The notes: generated by a model from the sequence alone, not told the origin. DNA of 36,344 nt from a virus (IMGVR_UViG_2541047905_000018); one strand, 5' to 3'; positions 449 to 33,771 are shown, counted from the stretch's first letter. Translations and numbers: made by a program.

Positions 449-477
449 TTGACACTGGTTATCCACACAGCTAAAAA
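449..477 (+). promoter_or_regulatory. sigma70-like promoter for the dinI-like gene (TTGACA-17 nt-TAAAAA)
   Basis: TTGACA at 449-454, a 17-nt spacer and TAAAAA(T) at 472-477, about 40 nt upstream of the ATG at 515. Confidence 0.5.
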
Positions 478-483
478 TAACAC

Positions 484-499
484 CTGTACATAACTACAG
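484..499. promoter_or_regulatory. LexA (SOS) box CTGT-N8-ACAG
   Basis: CTGTACATAACTACAG matches the CTGT(N8)ACAG consensus. It lies just downstream of the -10 element of the dinI-like promoter. Confidence 0.75.
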
Positions 500-514
500 T
501 TACAGGAGGGGGTT

Positions 515-763
515 ATGCGTGTTGAGATCTGTATCGCTAAAGAAAAAATCAGCAAAATGCCGAAAGGTTCTGTTCCTGCTCTGCAGCAAGAAATGCTGCG
601 CCGCATAGGTAAGCGATATGACGATGCAGATGTGATCGTTAAATCTGCCAGCAATGATGGACTCACCATTTTAAGAGCCGTCGATAAAGAATCAGCACTG
701 GAGTTCGTACAGGAAACACTACAGGAAGTCTGGCAAACCGCGGACGACTGGTTTATGCAATAA
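515..763 (+). CDS. dinI: DinI-family DNA-damage-inducible protein (prophage moron)
   Basis: 82 aa. It aligns by eye with E. coli DinI ([11 protein letters not shown]..., C-terminal [15 protein letters not shown] versus DinI ILQETWESADDWF). A strong SD (AGGAGGGGG) precedes the ATG. Confidence 0.85.
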
Positions 764-24936: not shown

Positions 24937-25073
24937 AGCCTCACCTCCGCAGCGAACGGATGGCGTAGTTATAAGGGGAGCGAAAAAGAAAGAATGCGCG
25001 ATTGCGCAATATGGTAACGTCAGGGTATTATCCACTGGCTGAATAGATCACTTCACGTTTTTTGTTCCTTGCC

Positions 25074-25101
25074 GCCCGTATCCATATGCGGGCTTTTTTT
25101 T
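25074..25101 (+). terminator. plus-strand hairpin with T8, facing the lysis genes from the antisense side
   Basis: GCCCG-tatccatatg-CGGGC followed by T8 on the plus strand. No plus-strand gene lies upstream, so its role is unclear. Confidence 0.4.
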
Positions 25102-25107
25102 GCATGT

Positions 25108-25137
25108 AAAAAGGCCCCAACACATGTGCGTGGGGCC
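25108..25137 (-). terminator. rho-independent terminator closing the 230-nt ORF-less unit downstream of the tRNAs
   Basis: The minus strand reads GGCCCCA-cgcacatgtgt-TGGGGCC followed by T5. Confidence 0.6.
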
Positions 25138-25167
25138 TGAGAGTATACATGGTTTCAGTCAACTGCA

Positions 25168-25189
25168 TGGTGCCGGGTGCCTCCCGGTG
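25168..25189 (-). repeat. 22-nt element CACCGGGAGGCACCCGGCACCA (copy 1, sense in the late transcript)
   Basis: Exact 22/22 match to 34354-34375 on the plus strand. It contains a CCGGG-aggca-CCCGG hairpin and tandem GGCACC. Confidence 0.8.
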
Positions 25190-25337
25190 AATTCAGTACC
25201 AGCACCTGAATCCGCGATTATCCCATATACCTACTCGCTGATTGCCCATCCGCACAGGGGGATTCACCATGCCAGTTTCTTTTAACAAACTCCCCGCAAA
25301 ACAGACAACTGTCAACCGTCTGAATTGTGAGACATTT

Positions 25338-25363
25338 AAAAAAAAGGCCCGCAAAAGCGAGCC
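25338..25363 (-). terminator. rho-independent terminator immediately after the tRNA cluster
   Basis: The minus strand reads GGCTCGC-tttt-GCGGGCC (one G-U pair) followed by T8. Confidence 0.6.
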
Positions 25364-25377
25364 GGGAAAAATAAGTC

Positions 25378-25454
25378 TGGCGCGTTGTACTGGATTCGAA
25401 CCAGTGACCGATTGCTTAGAAGGCAATTGCTCTGTCCGGTTGAGCTAACAACGC
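25378..25454 (-). tRNA. tRNA-Arg (anticodon UCU)
   Basis: I folded the cloverleaf by hand: acceptor GCGTTGT/ACAACGC, D arm GCTC..GAGC, anticodon arm ATTGC-CTTCTAA-GCAAT, T arm ACTGG-TTCGAAT-CCAGT, CCA encoded. Confidence 0.9.
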
Positions 25455-25467
25455 AGGGTACAGATAA

Positions 25468-25544
25468 TGGACCGCCATCGAGGACTCGAACCCCGCGCAA
25501 CCAGCTTCGAAGGCTGGTGCTCTATCCTGATGAGCTAATGGCGG
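25468..25544 (-). tRNA. tRNA-Arg (anticodon UCG)
   Basis: Cloverleaf: acceptor CCGCCAT/ATGGCGG, anticodon arm CCAGC-CTTCGAA-GCTGG, T arm CGGGG-TTCGAGT-CCTCG, CCA encoded. Confidence 0.85.
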
Positions 25545-25551
25545 TATGTGA

Positions 25552-25627
25552 TGGTGGCCCTTGCTGGATTTGAACCAGCGACCTGGCGATTATGAGTCGC
25601 TCGCTCTCACCACTGAGCTAAAGGGCC
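25552..25627 (-). tRNA. tRNA with CAU anticodon (Met, or Ile2 if lysidine-modified; the ileZ-like position of Stx phages)
   Basis: Cloverleaf: acceptor GGCCCTT/AAGGGCC, anticodon arm GCGA-CTCATAA-TCGC, T arm GCTGG-TTCAAAT-CCAGC, CCA encoded. Confidence 0.85.
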
Positions 25628-25667
25628 GGGAGCCGCATAATAACGACGCGTAATTAATTCTTCAATA

Positions 25668-25946
25668 TCATCCGTTCTGGCTGACTAAATCCTGTACTTC
25701 CCGAACCGTCTGCTCAAAACGTTCAGTCTCCAGCTCAACGCCAATTGCACGACGCCCGAGCGCCAGTGCCGCTTTCACTGTCGAACCCGACCCCATGAAA
25801 AAATCTGCAATCAGGTCACCCGGACGACTGCTAGCGCTGATTATCTGCTGCAGCATTTCTGCCGGTTTTTCGCACGGATGTTTCCCGGGATAGAACTGCA
25901 CCGGTTTATGCGTCCAGACATCGGTATACGGCACCTGCGCCGTCAC
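25668..25946 (-). pseudogene. C-terminal remnant of a beta-class N6/N4 DNA methyltransferase
   Basis: It has the AdoMet motif DFFMGSGSTVKAALALGRRAIGVE but no upstream DPPY-type catalytic motif. The frame opens with GTG only 60 nt from the tR'-like terminator. A short out-of-frame piece upstream (..LVVVNADCGGILA*) could be the original N-terminus. Confidence 0.6.
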
Positions 25947-26004
25947 GCCAAAATACCGCCGCAGTCGGCATTCACAACCACCAGCGCATTTAACGTTCAG
26001 CCAT

Positions 26005-26029
26005 AAAAAAACCCGCTCGCGGCGGGTTT
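26005..26029 (-). terminator. tR'-like rho-independent terminator about 70 nt downstream of Q
   Basis: The minus strand reads AAACCCGC-cgcga-GCGGGTTT followed by more T (7 T in all). The late promoter (pR') and qut site should lie in 26030-26097, but I could not assign convincing -35/-10 hexamers. Confidence 0.65.
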
Positions 26030-26097
26030 AAGCTGTGTGGCGAAGTAACCACTCTTAACATACTGACATACTTTTTGCGGACCGCACTAATCATTTT

Positions 26098-26478
26098 TTA
26101 CTTTTTTAGCAGCCAGTCGTCCATCTCCAGTCTTACCCCCAGCACAGACAAACATCCGTCAATAAACCCTTCGGCTATCTGCATCTCAATTCGTATTGCT
26201 TTTTCGCTTTTCTTTCTCGTCCTGGCTATCTGTCTTTTTGATATTCGCAACAAATAATGAGCAATGAGAAGCGAATACTCCTCAGGTTTTTTCTGCTTCA
26301 GACGAGCAAGACAGTTTTCAATGATAAGTCCGTCATCATCGCAGCAGGCCGGACGTGGTTTAGTGGCAGATGGTAAAAGTCCTTTGAATCCGGCAGCGAT
26401 CGGAGAATAGTCCACCCCGGTGTTACCACTTGCAGCCCATGCCCCCCAGCGTTCAAGAACCATCTGAATATCACGCAT
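26098..26478 (-). CDS. Q: late-gene antiterminator Q
   Basis: MRDIQMVLERWGAWAA... is the typical phage antitermination Q family opening. I chose the ATG at 26478, which has GGAG upstream. Position is immediately before the terminator, tRNAs and lysis genes. Confidence 0.85.
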   Translation of the reverse strand: MRDIQMVLERWGAWAASGNTGVDYSPIAAGFKGLLPSATKPRPACCDDDGLIIENCLARLKQKKPEEYSLLIAHYLLRISKRQIARTRKKSEKAIRIEMQIAEGFIDGCLSVLGVRLEMDDWLLKK

Positions 26479-26495
26479 CAACTTTCTCCACAAAA

Positions 26496-27491
26496 TCAGG
26501 CCAGCACGCCAATTGCCAGCGCACGATCGATAAAACGAAATATCAGCTCCAGCTGGGAGCCATACTTCTCTTCAAATGCCACGGTATCCGCATGCAGCTC
26601 GTCGTGATGCTTTCTGCACAAAGGCAACACAAAGAGGTCATGCGCTTTTGTACCCATTCCCCCCTGACCGTGGCCTATCAGGTGGTGGGGATCATCAGCT
26701 GGCTTTCCACAACATGCACACGGCTGTGTCTTAACCCAGCGCGTGTACTTTTCATTAACCCAGCGGCGACGTTTTGGGCGTAACATAAAAGACTCCGGCG
26801 ACTCCGGATCCACTTTCAGCGCCAGCACCTTTTTCGCTTTATCCTGGATAATGCTGGTGGCAGGAACCGAAGGAACAAGGTCACTCTCCCGGGTGACAGA
26901 CGGCACAACAGGCTTCGGTAATCTCAGTGCCTTACGGGCTGCACTTTCCGGTAAGGCATCCGCCAGGTCATTACGAATCAGCCACCAGCACAGTTCCGGC
27001 ATTGTCACAACGTGACTGTCATCAAAACCGAGATCACGGCGCACAACAGATAACACCCAGCGGGCACAGTTATCCGTTGCCATTGATTCCAGCCGTTCCG
27101 TGAACTGATCGCGCAACTGGTTATCGCAGTGCCAGCACAGACGGATTGCGCCCGGAGCGTGCCGCATTGTGGTCATGTTCTCGCTGTGCCAGTCGGAATG
27201 AGGCCACTGGCAGCCTTTTTCACGAAGTAACCAGCTTTCAAGACATTCCACGCCACCAGCACGACGGATCACTGCCTCATTGCGGAACACGGCCCGAACG
27301 GCAGGATCATCCGCCAGCGGTTGTGATGCCGCCGGAACGGCACCACTGGCGAAAGATGAATAACGCTCCGGCTCAGGCTCCAGCAGGACACGCCCCTGCA
27401 TAAACAGGGGCATCAGCTCTGAACCTGGCCTGAACAATACGATCCCCATACGCGGGGCAATTTCAGGGGTCAGTAGTGCTCTCACAGTCAC
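26496..27491 (-). CDS. DUF968-family protein with a C-terminal HNH/Zn-like motif
   Basis: 331 aa. The C-terminus CACCGKPADDPHHLIGHGQGGMGTKAHDLFVLPLCRKHHDELH is typical of the DUF968 proteins found upstream of Q in lambdoid prophages. The start (GTG at 27491 or 27485) is uncertain. Confidence 0.75.
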   Translation of the reverse strand: MTVRALLTPEIAPRMGIVLFRPGSELMPLFMQGRVLLEPEPERYSSFASGAVPAASQPLADDPAVRAVFRNEAVIRRAGGVECLESWLLREKGCQWPHSDWHSENMTTMRHAPGAIRLCWHCDNQLRDQFTERLESMATDNCARWVLSVVRRDLGFDDSHVVTMPELCWWLIRNDLADALPESAARKALRLPKPVVPSVTRESDLVPSVPATSIIQDKAKKVLALKVDPESPESFMLRPKRRRWVNEKYTRWVKTQPCACCGKPADDPHHLIGHGQGGMGTKAHDLFVLPLCRKHHDELHADTVAFEEKYGSQLELIFRFIDRALAIGVLA

Positions 27492-27492
27492 C

Positions 27493-28335
27493 TCAATGAA
27501 CGGTATCGAGCAGCTTTAACAGCTCAGGAAATCGGGATTCGAAGAAATGCGGCTGCGTCTCGCGCGGATTTGCAGGACTGGTGATGTTCTTGCCGAACAT
27601 GCAGCCTTTCGCCGTCAGCGACCAGAATTTTTTGATGTTGTTAATCGCGGTACGGCTGTATCGTTCGCGTTGTTCAACGATCCCCAGCTTCACCATCTGG
27701 TGATATGCCTGATTAGCCGTCAGGCGGATACCATACTGTTTCAGCAGTGCACTCAGCGACAGCGTGGGGCGACTTGAGCCATCAGGCGCGTCAGCAGGAG
27801 CATCAATGGCATAGCGCGGTGCCAGATTCGGTAAGCCAACAGCCTCCTGAAGCTTCTGACAGGCTCCAAGCACTGATGAGTTAGACAGGTTTAATTCCCG
27901 GCGCATAAAGTCCAGCAGGATCACGCCAGCCTGCATCTTGTCAGCAGCCTGCCCGGATAATTTTTCCGGTGTGCTGGTTACCATATCGAAAGTACGGATC
28001 ACCTTCAGATGGAATGACGGGCTGATCCACATTGCATAGGCATACACCAGTTCATTGCAGACATACGTTCCTCCATTCCGCCCTTCTATTTTACTTACTG
28101 GTTTACTACCCAAATTTTGGGTAGTTTCATTGAATGAACCGACACCCAAATTTTGGGTATCGATCAATTCCTGAACCAGCTCAGTAATCTGTTGGCTGGA
28201 AAGAAACTTTCCCGGCTCCTTAGTTCTGGCATTTGCACCAGATGCAACAGCAGCCCGATGCAGATCGTTCAGGCTGTAACGCCCATAAGCATCACGACGA
28301 ACTTCAATACCATCAATGACCATCAGATTATTCAT
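27493..28335 (-). CDS. KilA-N domain protein (Roi / antirepressor-like)
   Basis: I set the start at the ATG at 28335 (MNNLMVIDGIEVRRDAYGRYSLNDLHRA...GGTYVCNELVYAYAMWISPSFHLKV), which is KilA-N. AGAGGAGAAA is the SD. Confidence 0.8.
   Translation of the reverse strand: MNNLMVIDGIEVRRDAYGRYSLNDLHRAAVASGANARTKEPGKFLSSQQITELVQELIDTQNLGVGSFNETTQNLGSKPVSKIEGRNGGTYVCNELVYAYAMWISPSFHLKVIRTFDMVTSTPEKLSGQAADKMQAGVILLDFMRRELNLSNSSVLGACQKLQEAVGLPNLAPRYAIDAPADAPDGSSRPTLSLSALLKQYGIRLTANQAYHQMVKLGIVEQRERYSRTAINNIKKFWSLTAKGCMFGKNITSPANPRETQPHFFESRFPELLKLLDTVH
28106..28158. repeat. two copies of the palindrome ACCCAAA-T-TTTGGGT, 38 bp apart, inside the KilA-N/Roi-like gene
   Basis: CTACCCAAATTTTGGGTAG at 28106-28124 (9-bp arms) and ACCCAAATTTTGGGT at 28144-28158. 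They encode the repeated peptide TQNLG. Confidence 0.75.
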
Positions 28336-28354
28336 ACTTCGTTTCTCCTCTTGA

Positions 28355-28744
28355 TCAGGCGGCTGCACCCGCCGTTTTCTCGTACTTACTGATAGTGATC
28401 TCGACCTTCCCTTCCGGGATAACCGGTCCCCACTCCACCAGCATTCTTTTCACCTGGCTGTCGTCTTCCCACACACCCGCGTGGGTCAGGGCGTCAAACA
28501 GCGCCTTGTTATAGTTGTCCAGATCGCGGATCCGGTTATCCGGAGGAAACAACACGATCTCCACTGAAGCAGGTGCCGACGTTGGTTTCGGCAGACGACG
28601 TAACTGCTCAACTATTGCTGTGCACGCCGCACTCTGGAATTTTCGCCCCGCCGCGCTTATCAGGCTCTTACCAGCAAATGCCCCTTTGTTGGGGTGTCGC
28701 CAGTAGGTGTTCACGCTGGGTGGAAAAGGCAGAATCAGCTTCAT
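28355..28744 (-). CDS. rusA: RusA Holliday-junction resolvase
   Basis: 129 aa. ...RDLDNYNKALFDALTHAGVWEDDSQV... matches the RusA core motif. Confidence 0.9.
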   Translation of the reverse strand: MKLILPFPPSVNTYWRHPNKGAFAGKSLISAAGRKFQSAACTAIVEQLRRLPKPTSAPASVEIVLFPPDNRIRDLDNYNKALFDALTHAGVWEDDSQVKRMLVEWGPVIPEGKVEITISKYEKTAGAAA

Positions 28745-29067
28745 ACTTTCAGCCCCCTCTCATGTAACCAGTGGGCTGCACGCAGCCTGGCGTTTTCCTC
28801 ACCAGCAAGCAGTGCGCGGATAATCCCGGCCACCTCGCTGTCGTCGTCCTTCACCGCGGTATGAAGCGTGATGCCCCGGGCCACGCCACGCTTTATCGTG
28901 ATGACGCCTTTTTTCTCCAGTGCGCGAAGATGCTCCACCGCTGCATTCACTGAACGGTATCCCAGCATGGTAGCCACCTCCTGATTGGTTGGCGGGAAGC
29001 CACGTTCTTTCTGGTAAGAAATCAGCATATCCAGCACCTGCTGCTGGCATTGAGTTAACGTCGTCAT
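28741..29067 (-). CDS. LexA DNA-binding-domain-only protein (no S24 peptidase domain)
   Basis: MTTLTQCQQQVLDMLISYQKERGFPPTNQEVATMLGYRSVNAAVEHLRALEKKGVITIKRGVARGITL aligns by eye with LexA residues 1-69. The remaining ~40 aa are unrelated and lack the Ser/Lys dyad. Start and stop are coupled to neighbours (TAATG and ATGA). Confidence 0.8.
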   Translation of the reverse strand: MTTLTQCQQQVLDMLISYQKERGFPPTNQEVATMLGYRSVNAAVEHLRALEKKGVITIKRGVARGITLHTAVKDDDSEVAGIIRALLAGEENARLRAAHWLHERGLKV

Positions 29068-29555
29068 TAAGCCCCCACGTAATTCCCTGACAGATACCAC
29101 TCTTCACCCGATACAGCGCGCTTGCTGCTTTTCCGTAAACACCGCTCACGACGCGCAAGAAAATTGTTTCGCTCTTGCTGGGAGTGGCTTTCACGGAATG
29201 CCGCCATCCACACCGTTGCAGCACGACGGTATAAGCCCCTGGACTCCAGTTCTTCAGCCTGACGGGTCAGGCACAAAATCACCCAGGGGTCGTTAGTGCC
29301 GACATAGAAATTGCTCACAGGTATGGTTTCAAGAACAGGTTGCAGTTTCTCCTCCTGCGATATCTCAGCCTGGTGTGGGAAATGTCTGCGTGTTTTCCCT
29401 TCACAACGGTGAGCCACACGCCCACTCTGACGTAACTTGCTTGCTGACTGCAGTACGCGCTGCCGTGAGTAACCTGCAAAAGCATCCGCAATGTCTCCGG
29501 AAGTACAGCCCGGATGGGCTTCAATGAATTTCTGAACTTCATTCAAAAGACTCAT
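29067..29555 (-). CDS. PerC/Pch-like regulator (wHTH-like N-terminus plus PerC-type C-terminal motif)
   Basis: The C-terminal segment LESRGLYRRAATVWMAAFRESHSQQERNNFLARRERCL resembles the PerC/PchA motif (..GLWRRAATRWL....R..W....R..C). I chose the ATG at 29555, after AGGGGG. Confidence 0.55.
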   Translation of the reverse strand: MSLLNEVQKFIEAHPGCTSGDIADAFAGYSRQRVLQSASKLRQSGRVAHRCEGKTRRHFPHQAEISQEEKLQPVLETIPVSNFYVGTNDPWVILCLTRQAEELESRGLYRRAATVWMAAFRESHSQQERNNFLARRERCLRKSSKRAVSGEEWYLSGNYVGA

Positions 29556-29557
29556 GA

Positions 29558-30499
29558 TCACCCCCTGAATCCTTCCGGGATCTGGCTGTAGTCCACGTTG
29601 TCGTAACTGGCTTTGAAGTACGGGTCCTCACGTTTTTCTGTGTGCGTGCTGACGGACGGCGATAAGCGCAGGGAAAGCTCATCCCATTTTTCCCGCAACT
29701 TCGACGGGCTGAGCACGTTACGGCACCAGAACGGATCACGGCTGACGCGGCTGTACATCTCGCAGATTTGTTTGTGAGTACGACCATCCTGCACACACAT
29801 CAGGCGAATTTCGTTTGCCCATGCTGTCCAGTTCGGTTCTTTGGGACGAACCACCTCGCCGTCACATTCGGCGGCCTGCTCGTACAGGGCGATGATTTTT
29901 TTCCAGAGCCACTGTGCGCAGGTCAAATCATCCTGCGTTCCCCACTGGCGCTTTTTAGGGCTGAATACAACCGCATCAGGATGGCGAGTTAAAAAATCCT
30001 GTTCAGCCGTCTGCGTGTCCGGTTGCAAAGCGTCCGGACGAGAAGGTTTTTTATCTGACGGATCATGTTTTGATTTTACTGACGGATCCCCGCCAGATTC
30101 TGACGGGTGAAAACACGCTTTTTTGCCAGATTTCGACGCATCAAATTTTGACGGGTCAGATTTTGATGCGTCAGATTTTGACGGGTCAGAATCTGACAGT
30201 TGAGAAAATGCCGCAGCCTGAAGCTTCGCAACGTTAAGCTGATAAACATTCGACGCATTGCGGTTACCCTGGCGACGCGCCTTACGCGTTAACCAGCCTT
30301 CTGCTTCCAGCCGTGCGATAGCCGTTCTGACGGTACTCATCCCCGCGCCAATCTGGCGGGCAATGGTTTCAATTGATGGCCAGCACACACCCTCGTCATT
30401 ACTGAAATCAGCCAGACGGGCCATAATTGCCACACTGGATAATTTCATGCCTGACGCTGCGCAACCATCCCATACATAGCCGGTTAATTTGGTGCTCAC
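29558..30499 (-). CDS. replication initiator (HTH N-terminal domain, iterons inside the gene)
   Basis: 313 aa with an N-terminal wHTH (VCWPSIETIARQIGAGMSTVRTAIARLEAEGWL). The central PSKSD/ASKSD repeats are encoded by the iterons. Position is equivalent to lambda O. Confidence 0.8.
   Translation of the reverse strand: MSTKLTGYVWDGCAASGMKLSSVAIMARLADFSNDEGVCWPSIETIARQIGAGMSTVRTAIARLEAEGWLTRKARRQGNRNASNVYQLNVAKLQAAAFSQLSDSDPSKSDASKSDPSKFDASKSGKKACFHPSESGGDPSVKSKHDPSDKKPSRPDALQPDTQTAEQDFLTRHPDAVVFSPKKRQWGTQDDLTCAQWLWKKIIALYEQAAECDGEVVRPKEPNWTAWANEIRLMCVQDGRTHKQICEMYSRVSRDPFWCRNVLSPSKLREKWDELSLRLSPSVSTHTEKREDPYFKASYDNVDYSQIPEGFRG
30064..30200. repeat. origin-like iteron array (15-bp repeats, consensus TCAGATTTTGACGGG)
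   Basis: Five contiguous 15-mers at 30126-30200 (CCAGATTTCGACGCA, TCAAATTTTGACGGG, TCAGATTTTGATGCG, TCAGATTTTGACGGG, TCAGAATCTGACAGT). Degenerate copies lie near 30093 and 30071. Confidence 0.8.
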
Positions 30500-31053
30500 T
30501 TACGCACCTCCTTATGCTTTTCGTTCAGTTCCGAGTCCACCAGCCCGGCAACGAATACACCATCGTTGATGTAGTCGTAGAGCGATGAAGCCAGCGGAGA
30601 CTGAACTGAAACCAGCATCGGATAAAGTTGTTCTAACCAAACGCGGTGAATTTCAGCCATGTAGAGGTAAACAACGTGGGCATTGTGCGCGACACATGAA
30701 GTATCAACCTTTCCGATCAGCGCCTGTTCCATCTGGTTAAAGGCATTGATGTATGCCTCTTTGAACTGGGCAGCACGTTTACCCGTGAAACCCATAGCAA
30801 GAAACGCAAAGCCATCGCGGGTTATTTGATAGCAAGGTAGTTTGCGAGTACCGCCGTTGGGCTGGCGTACCAAAATTGATGTCTCCGCAAAATTGCGGGC
30901 ACAAAACTCTGGAGAACAATCCAAAATGCGAATCTTTTTCAGAACATCGTCATGACGTTTAGAGAAGAAGTCAGCAACAGCCAAAGAAGATGTAACAGCC
31001 TGACCATCAACGATGGCAATTTCAGGTTGAGAGAGGGTTGGGAGAGTAGTCAT
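30496..31053 (-). CDS. Rha-family phage regulatory protein
   Basis: From the ATG at 31053: MTTLPTLSQPEIAIVDGQAVTSSLAVADFFSKRHDDVLKKIRIL..., a typical Rha domain. The supplied ORF extends to 31353, but that extension contains terminator hairpins (see the leader feature at 31054-31330). Confidence 0.7.
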   Translation of the reverse strand: MTTLPTLSQPEIAIVDGQAVTSSLAVADFFSKRHDDVLKKIRILDCSPEFCARNFAETSILVRQPNGGTRKLPCYQITRDGFAFLAMGFTGKRAAQFKEAYINAFNQMEQALIGKVDTSCVAHNAHVVYLYMAEIHRVWLEQLYPMLVSVQSPLASSLYDYINDGVFVAGLVDSELNEKHKEVRK

Positions 31054-31330
31054 AGTGACAGCCCCGGTAGTCAGTTTTTTAGAAAACTCACCACATGGGA
31101 CGCCAATCACAGAGGTGGTGAGACGTACAGGGTTGGCGTTACCGGAGACTACCGAACCCGGCCCGACCGAAGTCGGCCCTGTACGCCCCACCATAATTTG
31201 GGCGTAGCAATGCTCATGACACGAAAAAACCGCATGAGCGCGGTTATGCTCAGTAATCAATTTCAGGACGCCAATCCCGGCAACGGATTTTGCCGCTGCC
31301 AGAACAATATAACGCCCAGAATTATCAGAA
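31054..31330 (-). promoter_or_regulatory. highly structured leader with intrinsic terminators upstream of rha and the replication gene (tR1-like region)
   Basis: On the minus strand: AACCGC-gctcat-GCGGTT followed by T6 (31224-31245); TACGCCC...GGGCGTA; a 9-bp stem CGTACAGGG/CCCTGTACG enclosing CCGAC-UUCG-GUCGG; and CTCACCAC...GTGGTGAG followed by TTTTCT (31081-31122). Confidence 0.55.
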
Positions 31331-31522
31331 TCAATCATTACTGGTTTGCTCATGATCGTCCCTTATCTCCCTGAACTTTTGCCTGAAATGCTCAAGCGGG
31401 CTGAAGCATTCATGTTCATAGCCTTCACGGAGGTAGATAACCCGTTGTGTTTCCGGCTCCCAACGAATGACTCTGACGGGCACTCCGTAGTGATCTTTGA
31501 ACCAGCGGTTAACTTGTCGCAA
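31331..31522 (-). CDS. DUF4222-like small protein
   Basis: ...[44 protein letters not shown] fits my recollection of DUF4222. The likely start is the TTG at 31522, with AAGGAG 8 nt upstream. The supplied ORF begins at a GTG at 31564. Confidence 0.5.
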
Positions 31523-31701
31523 AGGACTGTCTCCTTCTGCCGGTTGAAATCCCCCACAGCCCACTCTGCAAAGCAGTGGGTTACAATTTCCCTGTCACCT
31601 GGTACATTCACTGCATAGCAATACTCCACCTTCGCTTTTCCACCCGGTACAGGAAGCGCAATCAGTTGCGAGCGACGGTAGTGTGTTGTTAAACTGTTCA
31701 T
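31363..31701 (-). CDS. hypothetical protein, start-coupled to the CII-like gene; its 3' half overlaps the DUF4222 gene out of frame
   Basis: The ATG at 31701 overlaps the upstream stop (ATGA). The N-terminal ~55 aa look protein-like and the remainder looks like out-of-frame read-through. Confidence 0.35.
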
Positions 31702-32339
31702 GCGTTAGTTTCTCCACAACCAGAAGCAATCGACGCCACGACGCCCGGAGCTGCACACTCGCGGGCGTTACTCTTTTCCGGCGCACAAAAAACACGAAAT
31801 AACAGTGTTAAATGCTCCTGCCACTTCGCCATTACTTGGTAGCTGTTCTCTTCGATTTGCTCACGCTCAGCTTGGTCAATAACTCCATCAGCAGTTGCCT
31901 TGCGTAAGTACTGGGAATGCTTGCCAATCCATTCTATTGACTCCATCAGCCGCTGATTAATGTCACCATTGTCAATGTCATCAATGACCACCAGCGGCAC
32001 AAACACCCCATTACTACGACGGGCTATTGCATCCGTTACATGCCTGGTACCACTGGCATCCTGTAAAACCATGGCCCACTCAAGTGGAAAAATTTGATCC
32101 CCACCGCTACGCAGTCTGTTATGCAATTGATCTTTTGCTGGGGTGATATCATCAGATTTATACAAACCAAGAATTTCTGCTGCTTCCTCATAGCCATGAG
32201 GTAAATCAGCAATCGTTCTTCGTATTGCTGCCACCAGCCATGCTGGTTGCTTATCAACTTTCCATTCAGGTTCTTTACCCACGTTTAAGCCCTCATATCT
32301 GTGGTTTCTGTAAATCGATTTATCCATTAGATTTTTCAT
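31698..32339 (-). CDS. CII-like (CP76-type) regulatory protein, in the YdaT/CII position
   Basis: It directly follows the Cro-like gene. Its general pattern (..YEEAAEILG.....L.NRL.....[14 protein letters not shown]..) resembles the phage regulatory CII (CP76) family as I remember it. The start is uncertain (32339 or 32327). Confidence 0.45.
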
Positions 32340-32520
32340 AAAGCTCAGGTTTAAATGGCAACCGTCCGCAAGTTCTATATGCAGCCTCTGCTGCACGTCC
32401 TTTTGGAATTAACTGGCCAGGACGGTTTCGCCACTGATAAACGGCTTCAGTTGTTATGCCGAAAAAAGCAGCAACTTTCTCAATGCTGCCGAAGTAGCTT
32501 TCGATATCGTCAGTCGTCAT
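32320..32520 (-). CDS. Cro-like repressor of the DicC/P22-Cro type
   Basis: 66 aa. ..YFGSIEKVAAFFGITTEAVYQWRNRPGQLIPKGRAAE.. parallels DicC (YFGSKTKLAQAAGIRLASLYSWKGDLVPEGRAMR). GGAGGG is the SD. It is divergent from the CI gene. Confidence 0.8.
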   Translation of the reverse strand: MTTDDIESYFGSIEKVAAFFGITTEAVYQWRNRPGQLIPKGRAAEAAYRTCGRLPFKPELYEKSNG

Positions 32521-32531
32521 ATGCCCTCCAA

Positions 32532-32596
32532 ACTAAGTTTTATTAGATGTTAATTATCAATCTATCTTAGGTCAATAAAAACTAAGATTACTTAGT
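32532..32596. promoter_or_regulatory. three-site operator (OR-like), half-sites ACTAAG/CTTAGT
   Basis: The sites are ACTAAGTTTTATTAGA (32532-47), ATCAATCTATCTTAGG (32556-71) and the perfect palindrome ACTAAGATTACTTAGT (32581-96). Centre-to-centre spacing is 24 and 25 bp. Confidence 0.6.
32547..32575 (-). promoter_or_regulatory. candidate pR (TTGACC-17 nt-TAACAT) driving the cro-like gene
   Basis: The minus strand has TTGACC (plus-strand 32570-75) and TAACAT (32547-52). It overlaps operator sites 1 and 2. Confidence 0.5.
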
Positions 32597-32617
32597 AATT
32601 AAAGAAATGGTGCTCCT

Positions 32618-33244
32618 ATGGAAACGGTTGGTCAGCGTATAAAAGCTCTGAGAAGAGTTACCAGAACGTCCCAGAAAGAATTGGGTAAATTTTGTGGAGT
32701 AAGTGACGTTGCTGTGGGGTACTGGGAGAAAGACATCAATGTCCCTGGTGGGGAAGCACTTTCAAAATTAGCGAAGTTCTTCAATACGTCAATAGATTAC
32801 ATTCTTTATGGTGCGGAGTTTGAAGGCAAACTCGTCACAAACATGCGCAGAGTTCCTGTAATCTCGTGGGTTCAGGCTGGGCAGTTTACTGAGTGCAGGA
32901 CAGCAGAAGTGTTTAGTGAAGTAGACAAGTGGGTAGATACATCATTAAAGATTGGTGATAACTCATTTGCATTGGAGGTTAAAGGCGACTCCATGACTAA
33001 CCCTAACGGCCTCCCAACAATACCAGAAGGCGCAACAGTGATTGTAGATCCTGATGCAGAACCCCGGCATGGAAAAATAGTCATCGCTAGACTTGATGGA
33101 ACAAACGAAGCCACAGTAAAAAAATTAGTTATCGATGGCCCTCAAAAGTTTTTAGTGCCATTAAATCCCCGGTACCCCAACATCCCGATCAATGGTAATT
33201 GCCTCATCATTGGTGTAGTCAAAGGAGTTCAATACGAACTCTAG
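32618..33244 (+). CDS. cI: CI-type repressor (XRE HTH plus S24 LexA-like peptidase domain)
   Basis: 208 aa. N-terminal HTH (QKELGKFCGVSDVAVGYWEKD) and C-terminal S24 domain (VKGDSMTNP...ATVKKL Ser/Lys dyad). Confidence 0.9.
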   Translation: METVGQRIKALRRVTRTSQKELGKFCGVSDVAVGYWEKDINVPGGEALSKLAKFFNTSIDYILYGAEFEGKLVTNMRRVPVISWVQAGQFTECRTAEVFSEVDKWVDTSLKIGDNSFALEVKGDSMTNPNGLPTIPEGATVIVDPDAEPRHGKIVIARLDGTNEATVKKLVIDGPQKFLVPLNPRYPNIPINGNCLIIGVVKGVQYEL

Positions 33245-33266
33245 CCCCCCTTTTCTCTAACCAAAA

Positions 33267-33299
33267 CACCGAACTAAGAAAAGTTTGGTGTTTTCTCTT
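33267..33299 (+). terminator. rho-independent terminator after cI
   Basis: CACCGAAC-taagaaaa-GTTTGGTG (one G-U pair) followed by TTTTCTCTT. Confidence 0.5.
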
Positions 33300-33326
33300 G
33301 CCATCAAAACTAAGTTAAGTTAGATT
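33298..33326 (+). promoter_or_regulatory. candidate pL (TTGCCA-17 nt-TAGATT) with an OL-like operator in the spacer
   Basis: The operator-like ACTAAGTTAAGTTAGA at 33309-33324 lies between the -35 and -10 elements. It shares its half-site with the OR sites. Confidence 0.55.
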
Positions 33327-33409
33327 TTATATCAAAGATAACGAACAGGCAGGACGCCCACGAAGTAGCCGCCCGGGGCATATGAAGTCCAGGATGATTC
33401 GTTAGCAAC

Positions 33410-33432
33410 AAAAAAGCGCCCTACAGGACGCT
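33410..33432 (-). terminator. minus-strand terminator beyond the 5' end of the 97-aa gene (would end the A2 transcript)
   Basis: The minus strand reads AGCGTCC-tgtag-GGCGCT (one bulged base) followed by T6. Confidence 0.5.
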
Positions 33433-33477
33433 TAGCTCTTTAACAATCTTGGTATCCCCGTAACAAAAGAGGGTTCT

Positions 33478-33771
33478 ATGGTCATATTCTGTGCTTACGT
33501 TCATCCTAATGGATTTTTTATCAGCACCAACCAACAAGACGAATTCTGGATTCTACTTAGTAAGCAGGTCGGATGGGGACGATTCTGTCTAATCCGACCA
33601 GAATCAGAATTTACAGAGAATGGAGGGCTTTTTGAATTACGTGAAATACGTCCGGCAGATGGTCAAGCCCCTGACCAAGTAATCGAATCGTCAGCTGTTT
33701 TATGGCGTCGGCAGGAAGCGTTCGAAGCTGAGAGAGTAATTTCTTCTTATCTTCAGTCGTGGCAGAAGTAG
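33478..33771 (+). CDS. unknown 97-aa protein (copy B2 of the duplicated module), first ORF after pL
   Basis: GAGGG SD 5 nt upstream. Paralogue of 22581-22937. Differences between the copies in the non-overlapped part fall mainly at third codon positions. Confidence 0.65.
   Translation: MVIFCAYVHPNGFFISTNQQDEFWILLSKQVGWGRFCLIRPESEFTENGGLFELREIRPADGQAPDQVIESSAVLWRRQEAFEAERVISSYLQSWQK

Follow-up and report, generated by a model that had tools for sequence, protein, structure and literature searches.

Can a phage protein that keeps the DNA-binding half of LexA, but not its self-cleaving half, act on SOS operators while LexA itself is being destroyed? The question is raised by a gene, here named lexN, in the viral sequence IMGVR_UViG_2541047905_000018, a stretch of 36,344 nucleotides (nt) that was analyzed at its full length and is called the window. 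LexN is the DNA-binding half of LexA joined to a short helical tail that replaces the self-cleaving half (Table 1). On the minus strand, the open reading frame (ORF) runs from an ATG at 29067-29065 to a TGA at 28743-28741 and encodes 108 amino acids (aa; MTTLTQCQQQVLDMLISYQKERGFPPTNQEVATMLGYRSVNAAVEHLRALEKKGVITIKRGVARGITLHTAVKDDDSEVAGIIRALLAGEENARLRAAHWLHERGLKV), the length already given in a preliminary description of this DNA. An alternative in-frame GTG at 29100 adds 11 residues and yields 119 aa. The 108-aa start call is sound, because alignments show a start at the MTTLT/MKALT position to be common to all LexN homologues and LexA itself, and because a Shine-Dalgarno-like GGGGG run lies 4 nt 5' of the ATG. 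The translational coupling claimed earlier is borne out by the overlaps at both ends of the gene: in TAATG, the stop of the PerC-like ORF and the LexN start have base 29067 in common, and in ATGA (28741-28744) the LexN stop overlaps the start of rusA.

The DNA-binding domain was assigned from sequence and from structure. In Pfam, LexA_DNA_bind (PF01726) matched LexN residues 1-65 over model positions 1-65 of 65 with E=2.9e-19, whereas other winged helix-turn-helix (HTH) families (Crp, Rrf2, HrcA) reached merely E=1e-3 to 0.1. With phmmer, the best match in the PDB was 1lea, the DNA-binding domain of E. coli LexA (E=8.2e-16), aligned 2-69 on 2-69 without a gap, and this alignment showed the recognition-helix strings cited in the preliminary description to be correct. 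A monomer model built with AlphaFold2 (AF2), as had been proposed there, has a confident LexA-type fold (predicted local distance difference test score, pLDDT: mean 85.7, winged-HTH part 83-93). With this model, Foldseek ranked the LexA-DNA complex 3jso first (root-mean-square deviation, rmsd, 0.8 A over 68 residues, 50% identity), and all of the top 12 matches were LexA. The domain is specifically LexA-type. Pfam, phmmer and Foldseek thus do not point to a generic winged HTH unrelated to LexA, the outcome named beforehand as speaking against the assignment, and the resemblance of the first ~69 aa to the LexA N-terminal domain holds.

LexA contacts DNA from helix 3 through Ser39, Asn41, Ala42, Glu44 and Glu45 (PMC3091678, PMC13416735). 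Four of these five residues are identical in LexN (S39, N41, A42 and E45) and Glu44 is replaced by Val; over the whole helix, 10 of 13 positions are identical. In the wing, R64-G65-I66 of LexA is kept, and the tip reads TIKRGVARG in LexN versus EIVSGASRG in LexA. Since S39, N41, A42, E45 and the wing residues R64-G65-I66 are retained, a LexN dimer, held together by its C-terminal hairpin, would be expected to read CTGT-type half-sites and thus SOS-box-like operators.

The tail that stands in place of the S24 domain comprises ~35 aa and is modeled as an amphipathic two-helix hairpin (H75-88/H93-103, pLDDT ~86-88) behind a linker whose residues 71-73 fall below pLDDT 50. Its helices carry hydrophobic stripes (V79, I82, I83, L86, L87; A93, A97, W100, L101), and the pattern hhRxLLxxxxxARxRAxxWLxxxG persists in homologues down to 39-52% identity, the homologues being of steady length (106-112 aa). 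A profile search with the tail alone returned fragments of the LexN family and nothing else, so that no likeness to LexA or to other protein families was seen. Weak full-length Foldseek matches of LexN were the BlaI-like 2g9w, MecI 1okr and the MarR-type MepR. As judged from the monomer model, the hairpin probably makes LexN a dimer by forming a four-helix bundle, replacing the dimerization that LexA achieves through its C-terminal domain (PMC3091678).

Pfam gave no match to Peptidase_S24 (PF00717) in LexN, which ends at residue 108 and has no Ser119/Lys156-type dyad, and the NCBIfam LexA equivalog TIGR00498 was matched at model positions 1-91 of 203 with 67.4 bits, against a cut-off of 110.95. 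Because the catalytic domain is absent, self-cleavage of LexN is excluded, and in this respect the preliminary description, which had noted the missing dyad and autocleavage domain, stands. Its statement that there is no Ala-Gly site is literally wrong: A88-G89 occurs in 'LLAGEE' and in a MAFFT alignment lies opposite 'VAAGEP', where LexA is cleaved at Ala84-Gly85 in an exposed loop. A cryptic cleavage or decoy site at this dipeptide was considered and rejected, because A88-G89 lies at the end of the predicted helix 75-88 and relatives do not keep the Gly (LLANEE, VERES, LTRKE, IDDQP).

The tail also bears on the mixed dimers with host LexA that had been suggested. LexN could in that case be a dominant-negative anti-LexA factor which, by mixed dimers or by poisoning LexA on DNA, derepresses SOS genes. 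On the SOS box, the wings of the two LexA subunits touch, and a DNA-templated LexN-LexA pair is therefore conceivable. (For the role of the wing, see PMC8565304.) However, LexA dimerizes via the C-terminal domain (PMC3091678), which LexN lacks, and the LexN tail is an unrelated helical hairpin. Furthermore, LexA would already be undergoing cleavage when LexN is made, which would render antagonism redundant. Mixed dimers are therefore unsupported, and we consider an anti-LexA function highly improbable.

lexN was found in 2233 of 5426 complete E. coli genomes (~41%, at least 90% nucleotide identity), with one to four copies each, and tblastn identified 61 phage records with the gene, among them SfII, SfIV, SfV, cdtI, mEp460 and Shiga toxin (Stx) 2a, 2c and 2k converting phages. 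The protein matches PHROG 362 ('transcriptional repressor') over its full length (E=7e-58, 1-108 on 1-106/106); the repressor label is annotation by homology. Proteins of 97% identity carry the PGAP name 'LexA family transcriptional regulator' (WP_000210176-type) or the name 'LexA DNA binding domain protein', and the database name 'SOS-response repressor and protease LexA' is wrong where it is given to lexN products. A catalogue of Stx phages lists pham 237 (pfam01726) in 15 phages without comment (PMC8136144). Beyond this entry and the precedent of gp6, which is discussed below, no functional or experimental study of LexN was found in the literature. The family is already annotated and the sequence is not new, but functionally it is unstudied.

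With a pooled ratio of nonsynonymous to synonymous polymorphism (pN/pS) of ~0.10 over 49 alleles, the gene is under purifying selection. That lexN is a decaying, functionless gene fragment might be thought from its resemblance to a truncated lexA and from the many partial or fused database entries. The pN/pS value, the confident fold, the spread among E. coli genomes, the steady length and a tail conserved at 39-52% identity all contradict this; the conservation data exclude a dead remnant, and the idea is effectively refuted.

Other proteins with LexA DNA-binding domains were noticed as well. Those of 140-165 aa (P0130, P0152, P0158, P0160 and ~15 others with two matched stretches) consist of two LexA DNA-binding domains in tandem, lack S24 and look like putative 'single-chain dimers', a separate route to a RecA-insensitive LexA-type binder. 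A third type without the C-terminal domain is P0133 (127 aa), whose tail is different. P0024, P0092 and P0098 (179-185 aa) combine Dam (PF05869) with a LexA_DNA_bind domain and probably arose when a deletion or frameshift fused neighboring dam and lexN genes.

When LexN would be made follows from its surroundings. The gene lies in a lambdoid early-right operon on the minus strand between the replication genes and Q, a position that had been proposed before and is borne out by the Pfam gene map. A scan of the window revealed no promoter-like site between lexN and 31334, and a promoter-like site at 32575-32547 (-) faces the operon. The CI-type repressor of the same prophage has an S24 domain, as stated earlier; RecA-stimulated cleavage of this repressor would turn on the lexN operon. 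The prophage also carries the SOS-boxed dinI that had been reported, with an exact CTGT-N8-ACAG at 484-499 in front of the gene. SOS boxes were scored with a position weight matrix (PWM) from 18 E. coli boxes, and the scores are relative values rather than published heterology indices: the dinI boxes reached 14.9-15.4 (453-472) and 16.4-16.5 (482-501), and the next-best site of the window 10.1. As these are the sole LexA-type operators in the window, they are the sole candidate phage-borne target of LexN. The weaker box lies 10 bp upstream of the main one and shares bases with the -35 element (TTGACA) of the dinI promoter, and the two would form tandem operators.

Homologues from Klebsiella and Enterobacter prophages, termed subfamily B, provide a second link to the SOS response. 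They are 39-43% identical to the window protein, have an N-terminal extension and belong to PHROG 362 too (E=1.6e-39); helix 3 of the P0138 type differs from the LexA contact set at E44 alone. At the head of every subfamily B unit stands a sigma-70-like promoter whose -10 element is overlapped or adjoined by a near-consensus SOS box (Table 1). These boxes have PWM scores of 21.8-26.6, and 1.09 Mb of shuffled sequence gave no site that reached 16. In four of the six loci, LexN is in the same transcription unit as dinI (three loci) or a RecA_C-like gene (one locus); the small ORF before LexN is phrog_1813 and the 67-aa ORF after it is phrog_1212. Klebsiella phage ST846-OXA48phi9.1 has the order DinI - hypothetical - 'DNA-binding protein' - hypothetical - DUF968 - Q and resembles the L091-type unit. 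The contig scan with a profile from the subfamily B alignment was dominated by host lexA genes, the useful loci being L094-L096. The position of the subfamily B gene behind a near-consensus SOS box is new contextual support for the putative SOS link of LexN. In the L086 prophage, the repressor has 128 aa with HTH_3 only and no S24 domain, and these phages may therefore use the LexA-gated unit as their induction module.

Table 1. Coordinates of lexN, its parts and neighboring features in the window, and of the SOS boxes of subfamily B units in related loci (designated L with a number).
Feature	Position (strand)	Description	Basis
lexN	28741..29067 (-)	108-aa protein with LexA N-terminal domain; stop codon 28741-28743 included	ORF and sequence
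LexA-type winged HTH	28861..29067 (-)	codons 1-69; H6-22, H28-35, H40-52, strands 56-58 and 66-68	AF2 model, Foldseek, phmmer
Recognition helix	28912..28953 (-)	SVNAAVEHLRALEK; codons 39-52; S39, N41, A42, E45 as in LexA; E44 to Val, P40 to Val	alignments
Linker and two-helix hairpin	28744..28860 (-)	codons 70-108; linker 70-74, H75-88, H93-103; replaces S24 domain	AF2, homologue alignment
CI-type repressor	32618-33244 (+)	HTH_3 and Peptidase_S24	Pfam
CII-like gene	31698-32396 (-)		Pfam
Ash/Rha gene	30496-31353 (-)	285 aa	Pfam
Replication protein	29558-30499 (-)	HTH_36/DnaD_N	Pfam
PerC-like regulator	29067-29561 (-)	164 aa; TAA overlaps LexN ATG	PF06069 E=8.9e-10; phrog_1324 E=1.8e-76
rusA	28355-28744 (-)	Holliday-junction resolvase, 129 aa; ATGA overlap with LexN stop	PF05866 E=7.4e-15
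KilA-N gene	27493-28368 (-)		Pfam
DUF968 gene	26496-27491 (-)		Pfam
Q	26098-26493 (-)		Pfam
dinI	515-763 (+)	82 aa	PF06183 E=6.7e-17
Two SOS-type boxes over dinI promoter	453..501 (+)	453-472 CACTGGTTATCCACACAGCT; 482-501 ACCTGTACATAACTACAGTT	PWM scan
L086/L087 SOS box	L086 5560-5579	ACCTGTACATTCATACAGTA; then 82-aa ORF, LexN, 67-aa ORF, RusA, DUF968, Q	
L091, L094, L095 SOS box	L091 513-532; L094 4381-4400; L095 4380-4399	TACTGTTTATTTATACAGTA/G; then DinI, small ORF, LexN, 67-aa ORF, DUF968, Q	
L092 SOS box	L092 4907-4942	TACTGTATAAAAATACAGTT and second overlapping box; then RecA_C-like ORF, small ORF, LexN, 66-aa ORF, RusA, DUF968	
L096 SOS box	L096 4560-4579	AACTGTACATTCATACAGTG; then small ORF, LexN, 67-aa ORF, RusA, DUF968, Q	

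Taken together, both subfamilies suggest that LexN would be made only once an SOS signal removes a RecA-sensitive repressor, that is, after inactivation of CI or LexA and while host LexA is being destroyed. We tentatively propose, with somewhat less than even confidence, that LexN is a RecA-insensitive LexA surrogate that acts on SOS-type operators during induction. Being uncleavable, LexN would re-impose repression on such operators in lytic development; candidates are the dinI boxes in the window, the gene's own SOS-box promoter in subfamily B and possibly host SOS genes. A more far-reaching version, in which LexN resets the SOS regulon inside the induced cell and re-occupies SOS boxes after CI or LexA cleavage for the rest of the lytic cycle, appears unlikely. 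If it were true, LexN would silence error-prone polymerases, SulA, TisB and colicins, together with the antirepressors that LexA gates in rival prophages and the dinI or induction unit of its own phage, and it would be a widespread unrecognized modulator of SOS output, mutagenesis and prophage competition, given its presence in ~41% of complete E. coli genomes.

Several observations weigh against a surrogate that reads SOS boxes. Across the LexN family, position 44 is never Glu (V/A/F/T/L/Y instead), and some members alter N41 (Tyr), A42 (S/T/G) or E45 (D/G/L), with SSPYAAYEHL, RSVNTIAGHL and SSSNAVLLHL as examples from single lineages. A strict SOS-box mimic is weakened by this, because the contact positions vary while the enterobacterial hosts share one invariant SOS box. 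In the PWM scan of the window, SOS-type boxes were present at dinI alone, far from lexN. What the subfamily B box shows is that host LexA controls the unit; it does not show that LexN binds there. Among loci that are related and thus not independent, SOS boxes were not significantly more common at LexN-positive (34/80) than at LexN-negative lambdoid nin loci (1/8). Dimerization of LexN was deduced from the model of the monomer alone. Finally, GIL01 gp6, which is 44% identical to host LexA and the sole truncated phage homologue of LexA to have been characterized, reads its own palindrome and activates transcription (PMC6182141), and since gp6 reads a different site at similar divergence, the specificity of LexN cannot be assumed at 50% identity.

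The variation in the helix is also what a phage-specific regulator of diverged specificity would display. Such a gp6-like protein would bind a non-SOS phage operator and activate or repress phage promoters, for example in late or moron regions, without an effect on the host SOS response. The precedent is gp6, a truncated LexA homologue that recognizes GaCACAnnTGTGaC and switches on the late promoter P3 (PMC6182141). Glu44 is lost throughout the LexN family and positions 41, 42 and 45 vary, which looks like diversifying specificity, and the wing tip is unlike that of LexA, the wing being credited with setting half-site spacing (PMC8565304). However, a search for CTGT-N0-20-ACAG revealed no candidate operator, as none of the spacings was enriched in the window and no site was common to the early regions of distant loci, and the module, with its overlapping genes, is nearly without non-coding DNA. 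Helix 3 is far closer to LexA than a new specificity needs, and the SOS genes that share an operon with subfamily B lexN point towards SOS biology. Diverged specificity is the chief alternative to the surrogate, and we regard it as somewhat unlikely.

The genes downstream of lexN were considered as a further indication of its function. The next detected gene 3' of lexN was rusA in all 85 related loci, abutting it in 84, and rusA is also downstream in most of the distant homologues; the arrangement is kept with LexN homologues of 43-52% identity (L082-L090). The gene 5' of lexN is variable (PerC-like, Dam methylase, C5 methylase or a replication gene). LexN precedes solely the RusA subclade of ~50% identity or more, and phage-82-type RusA follows YbcO. 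This synteny, the stop-start overlap of lexN with rusA and the invariable succession of DUF968 and Q would fit a DNA-targeting accessory of a recombination or nuclease module, in which the hairpin docks on RusA or on DUF968 (HNH-like) and the winged HTH tethers the complex to DNA. We consider this improbable, as rusA is absent from the units of L091, L094, L095 and phage ST846-OXA48phi9.1, which retain LexN, phage-82-type RusA works without LexN, and the selected recognition helix fits sequence-specific binding better. The same four units weaken the idea of an obligate RusA partner. A surrogate of the helicase loader (lambda P) was considered as well, as lexN often follows a single replication gene, and was rejected: L086 has DUF1376 (O-like) and lambda-P genes together with LexN.

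Further features were recorded around lexN and in related loci. The PerC-like upstream partner (29067-29561 in the window, 13068-13556 in L001) has an N-terminal MarR/Ren-like region by weak PHROG matches and a C-terminal PerC domain; its PGAP name is yfdN, and in the closest complete genome it is a pseudogene with an internal stop, LexN being intact there. Rfam matches to a C4 antisense RNA (82 bits) and the Hfq-binding small RNA (sRNA) isrK (69 bits) lie at 31111-31198 and 31223-31299 on the minus strand, preceded by a promoter-like site (31334-31306), all within the 5' part of the 285-aa Ash/Rha ORF. Together they have the appearance of an antirepressor unit under C4 control, similar to P1 immI and set into the early-right operon ahead of the replication gene and LexN. 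The interval from Q to the lysis genes holds a cluster of tRNAs (Met-CAT, Arg-TCG, Arg-TCT; 25378-25627, minus strand) and a match to the sRNA STnc100 (25102-25301, minus strand, 133 bits). From 25000 to 33500, terminator-like hairpins were three times more common than in shuffled sequence (27 vs 9.3 +/- 3.6), with strong ones at 26029-26009, just downstream of Q, and at 25363-25346.

SOS boxes were also seen within coding sequences of related loci. Downstream of Q, the window retains no more than the C-terminal 92 aa of an N6_N4 DNA methyltransferase (25668-25946). In relatives with the full gene (L034 10539-11591; L001 7459-8520), the near-consensus SOS box TACTGTAAAAATAAACAGTG covers codons 4-10 (M K N T V K I N S V); such a position hints at control of the phage methylase by LexA. 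The perfect or near-perfect SOS box TACTGTTTTTATATACAGTA, which we take to be the reverse complement of an umuDC-type box, lies inside the coding sequence of S24-type CI, in the linker region, in L034 (2444-2463), L088 (836-855) and 18 other loci.

The interest of LexN lies mainly in its wide spread and the ease with which it can be tested. If SOS boxes are bound, two fifths of E. coli strains would carry an uncleavable LexA-like repressor that is switched on as LexA is destroyed. The reading of SOS dynamics in lysogens would change, with a bearing on antibiotic-induced mutagenesis, on the induction of Stx phages (the gene being present in Stx2a, Stx2c and Stx2k phages) and on competition between co-resident prophages. 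If a phage-specific site is read, LexN would be the second independent case, after GIL01 gp6, of a LexA DNA-binding fold recruited by a phage, and it would inform the evolution of LexA specificity.

Among known systems, repressors of the BlaI/MecI and MarR types (2g9w, 1okr, MepR) also combine an N-terminal winged HTH with C-terminal helices. They have no sequence relationship to LexN and superimpose at an rmsd of 7-10 A, so the likeness merely illustrates that such tails commonly dimerize. LexN also has a context in common with the induction or moron units that LexA controls in temperate phages, such as dinI of phiKO2-type phages (PMC7556043): an SOS box heads the unit of subfamily B LexN as well, with dinI directly before LexN in three loci, and an SOS-boxed dinI is present in the window. 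The difference is that host LexA regulates those units, and none of them is known to encode a LexA paralogue of its own. With E. coli LexA (1lea, 1jhh, 3jso), LexN shares the winged-HTH fold (50% identity, rmsd 0.8 A) and S39, N41, A42 and E45, and functionally it would resemble the RecA*-immune super-repressors LexA(Ind-) (S119A, G85D). Unlike LexA, LexN has no S24 dimerization and protease domain and no functional cleavage loop, it carries E44V and P40V, its wing tip is more basic (K59, R60), its NCBIfam LexA score stays under the cut-off, and any dimerization would involve a different element.

The nearest characterized analogue is gp6 of the Bacillus thuringiensis tectivirus GIL01, a truncated LexA homologue (Fornelos et al., 2018; PMC6182141). 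Like LexN, it is phage-encoded, consists essentially of the LexA winged HTH without S24 and belongs to an early operon under SOS or repressor control, and the divergence from host LexA is similar (44% identity for gp6, 50% for LexN). Two tblastn searches (61 and 66 hits at E<=1e-5) returned no Bacillus or tectivirus record, and for this reason gp6 and LexN are regarded as separate offshoots of LexA. In contrast to LexN, gp6 is a winged HTH only, modeled as three helices with a 14-residue C-terminal extension that forms a two-strand beta-sheet and no hairpin, and it binds its own palindrome and activates a late promoter. LexN, for its part, is distinguished by the conserved 35-aa hairpin, by four of the five LexA helix-3 contacts and by its place in a lambdoid nin-type region upstream of Q.

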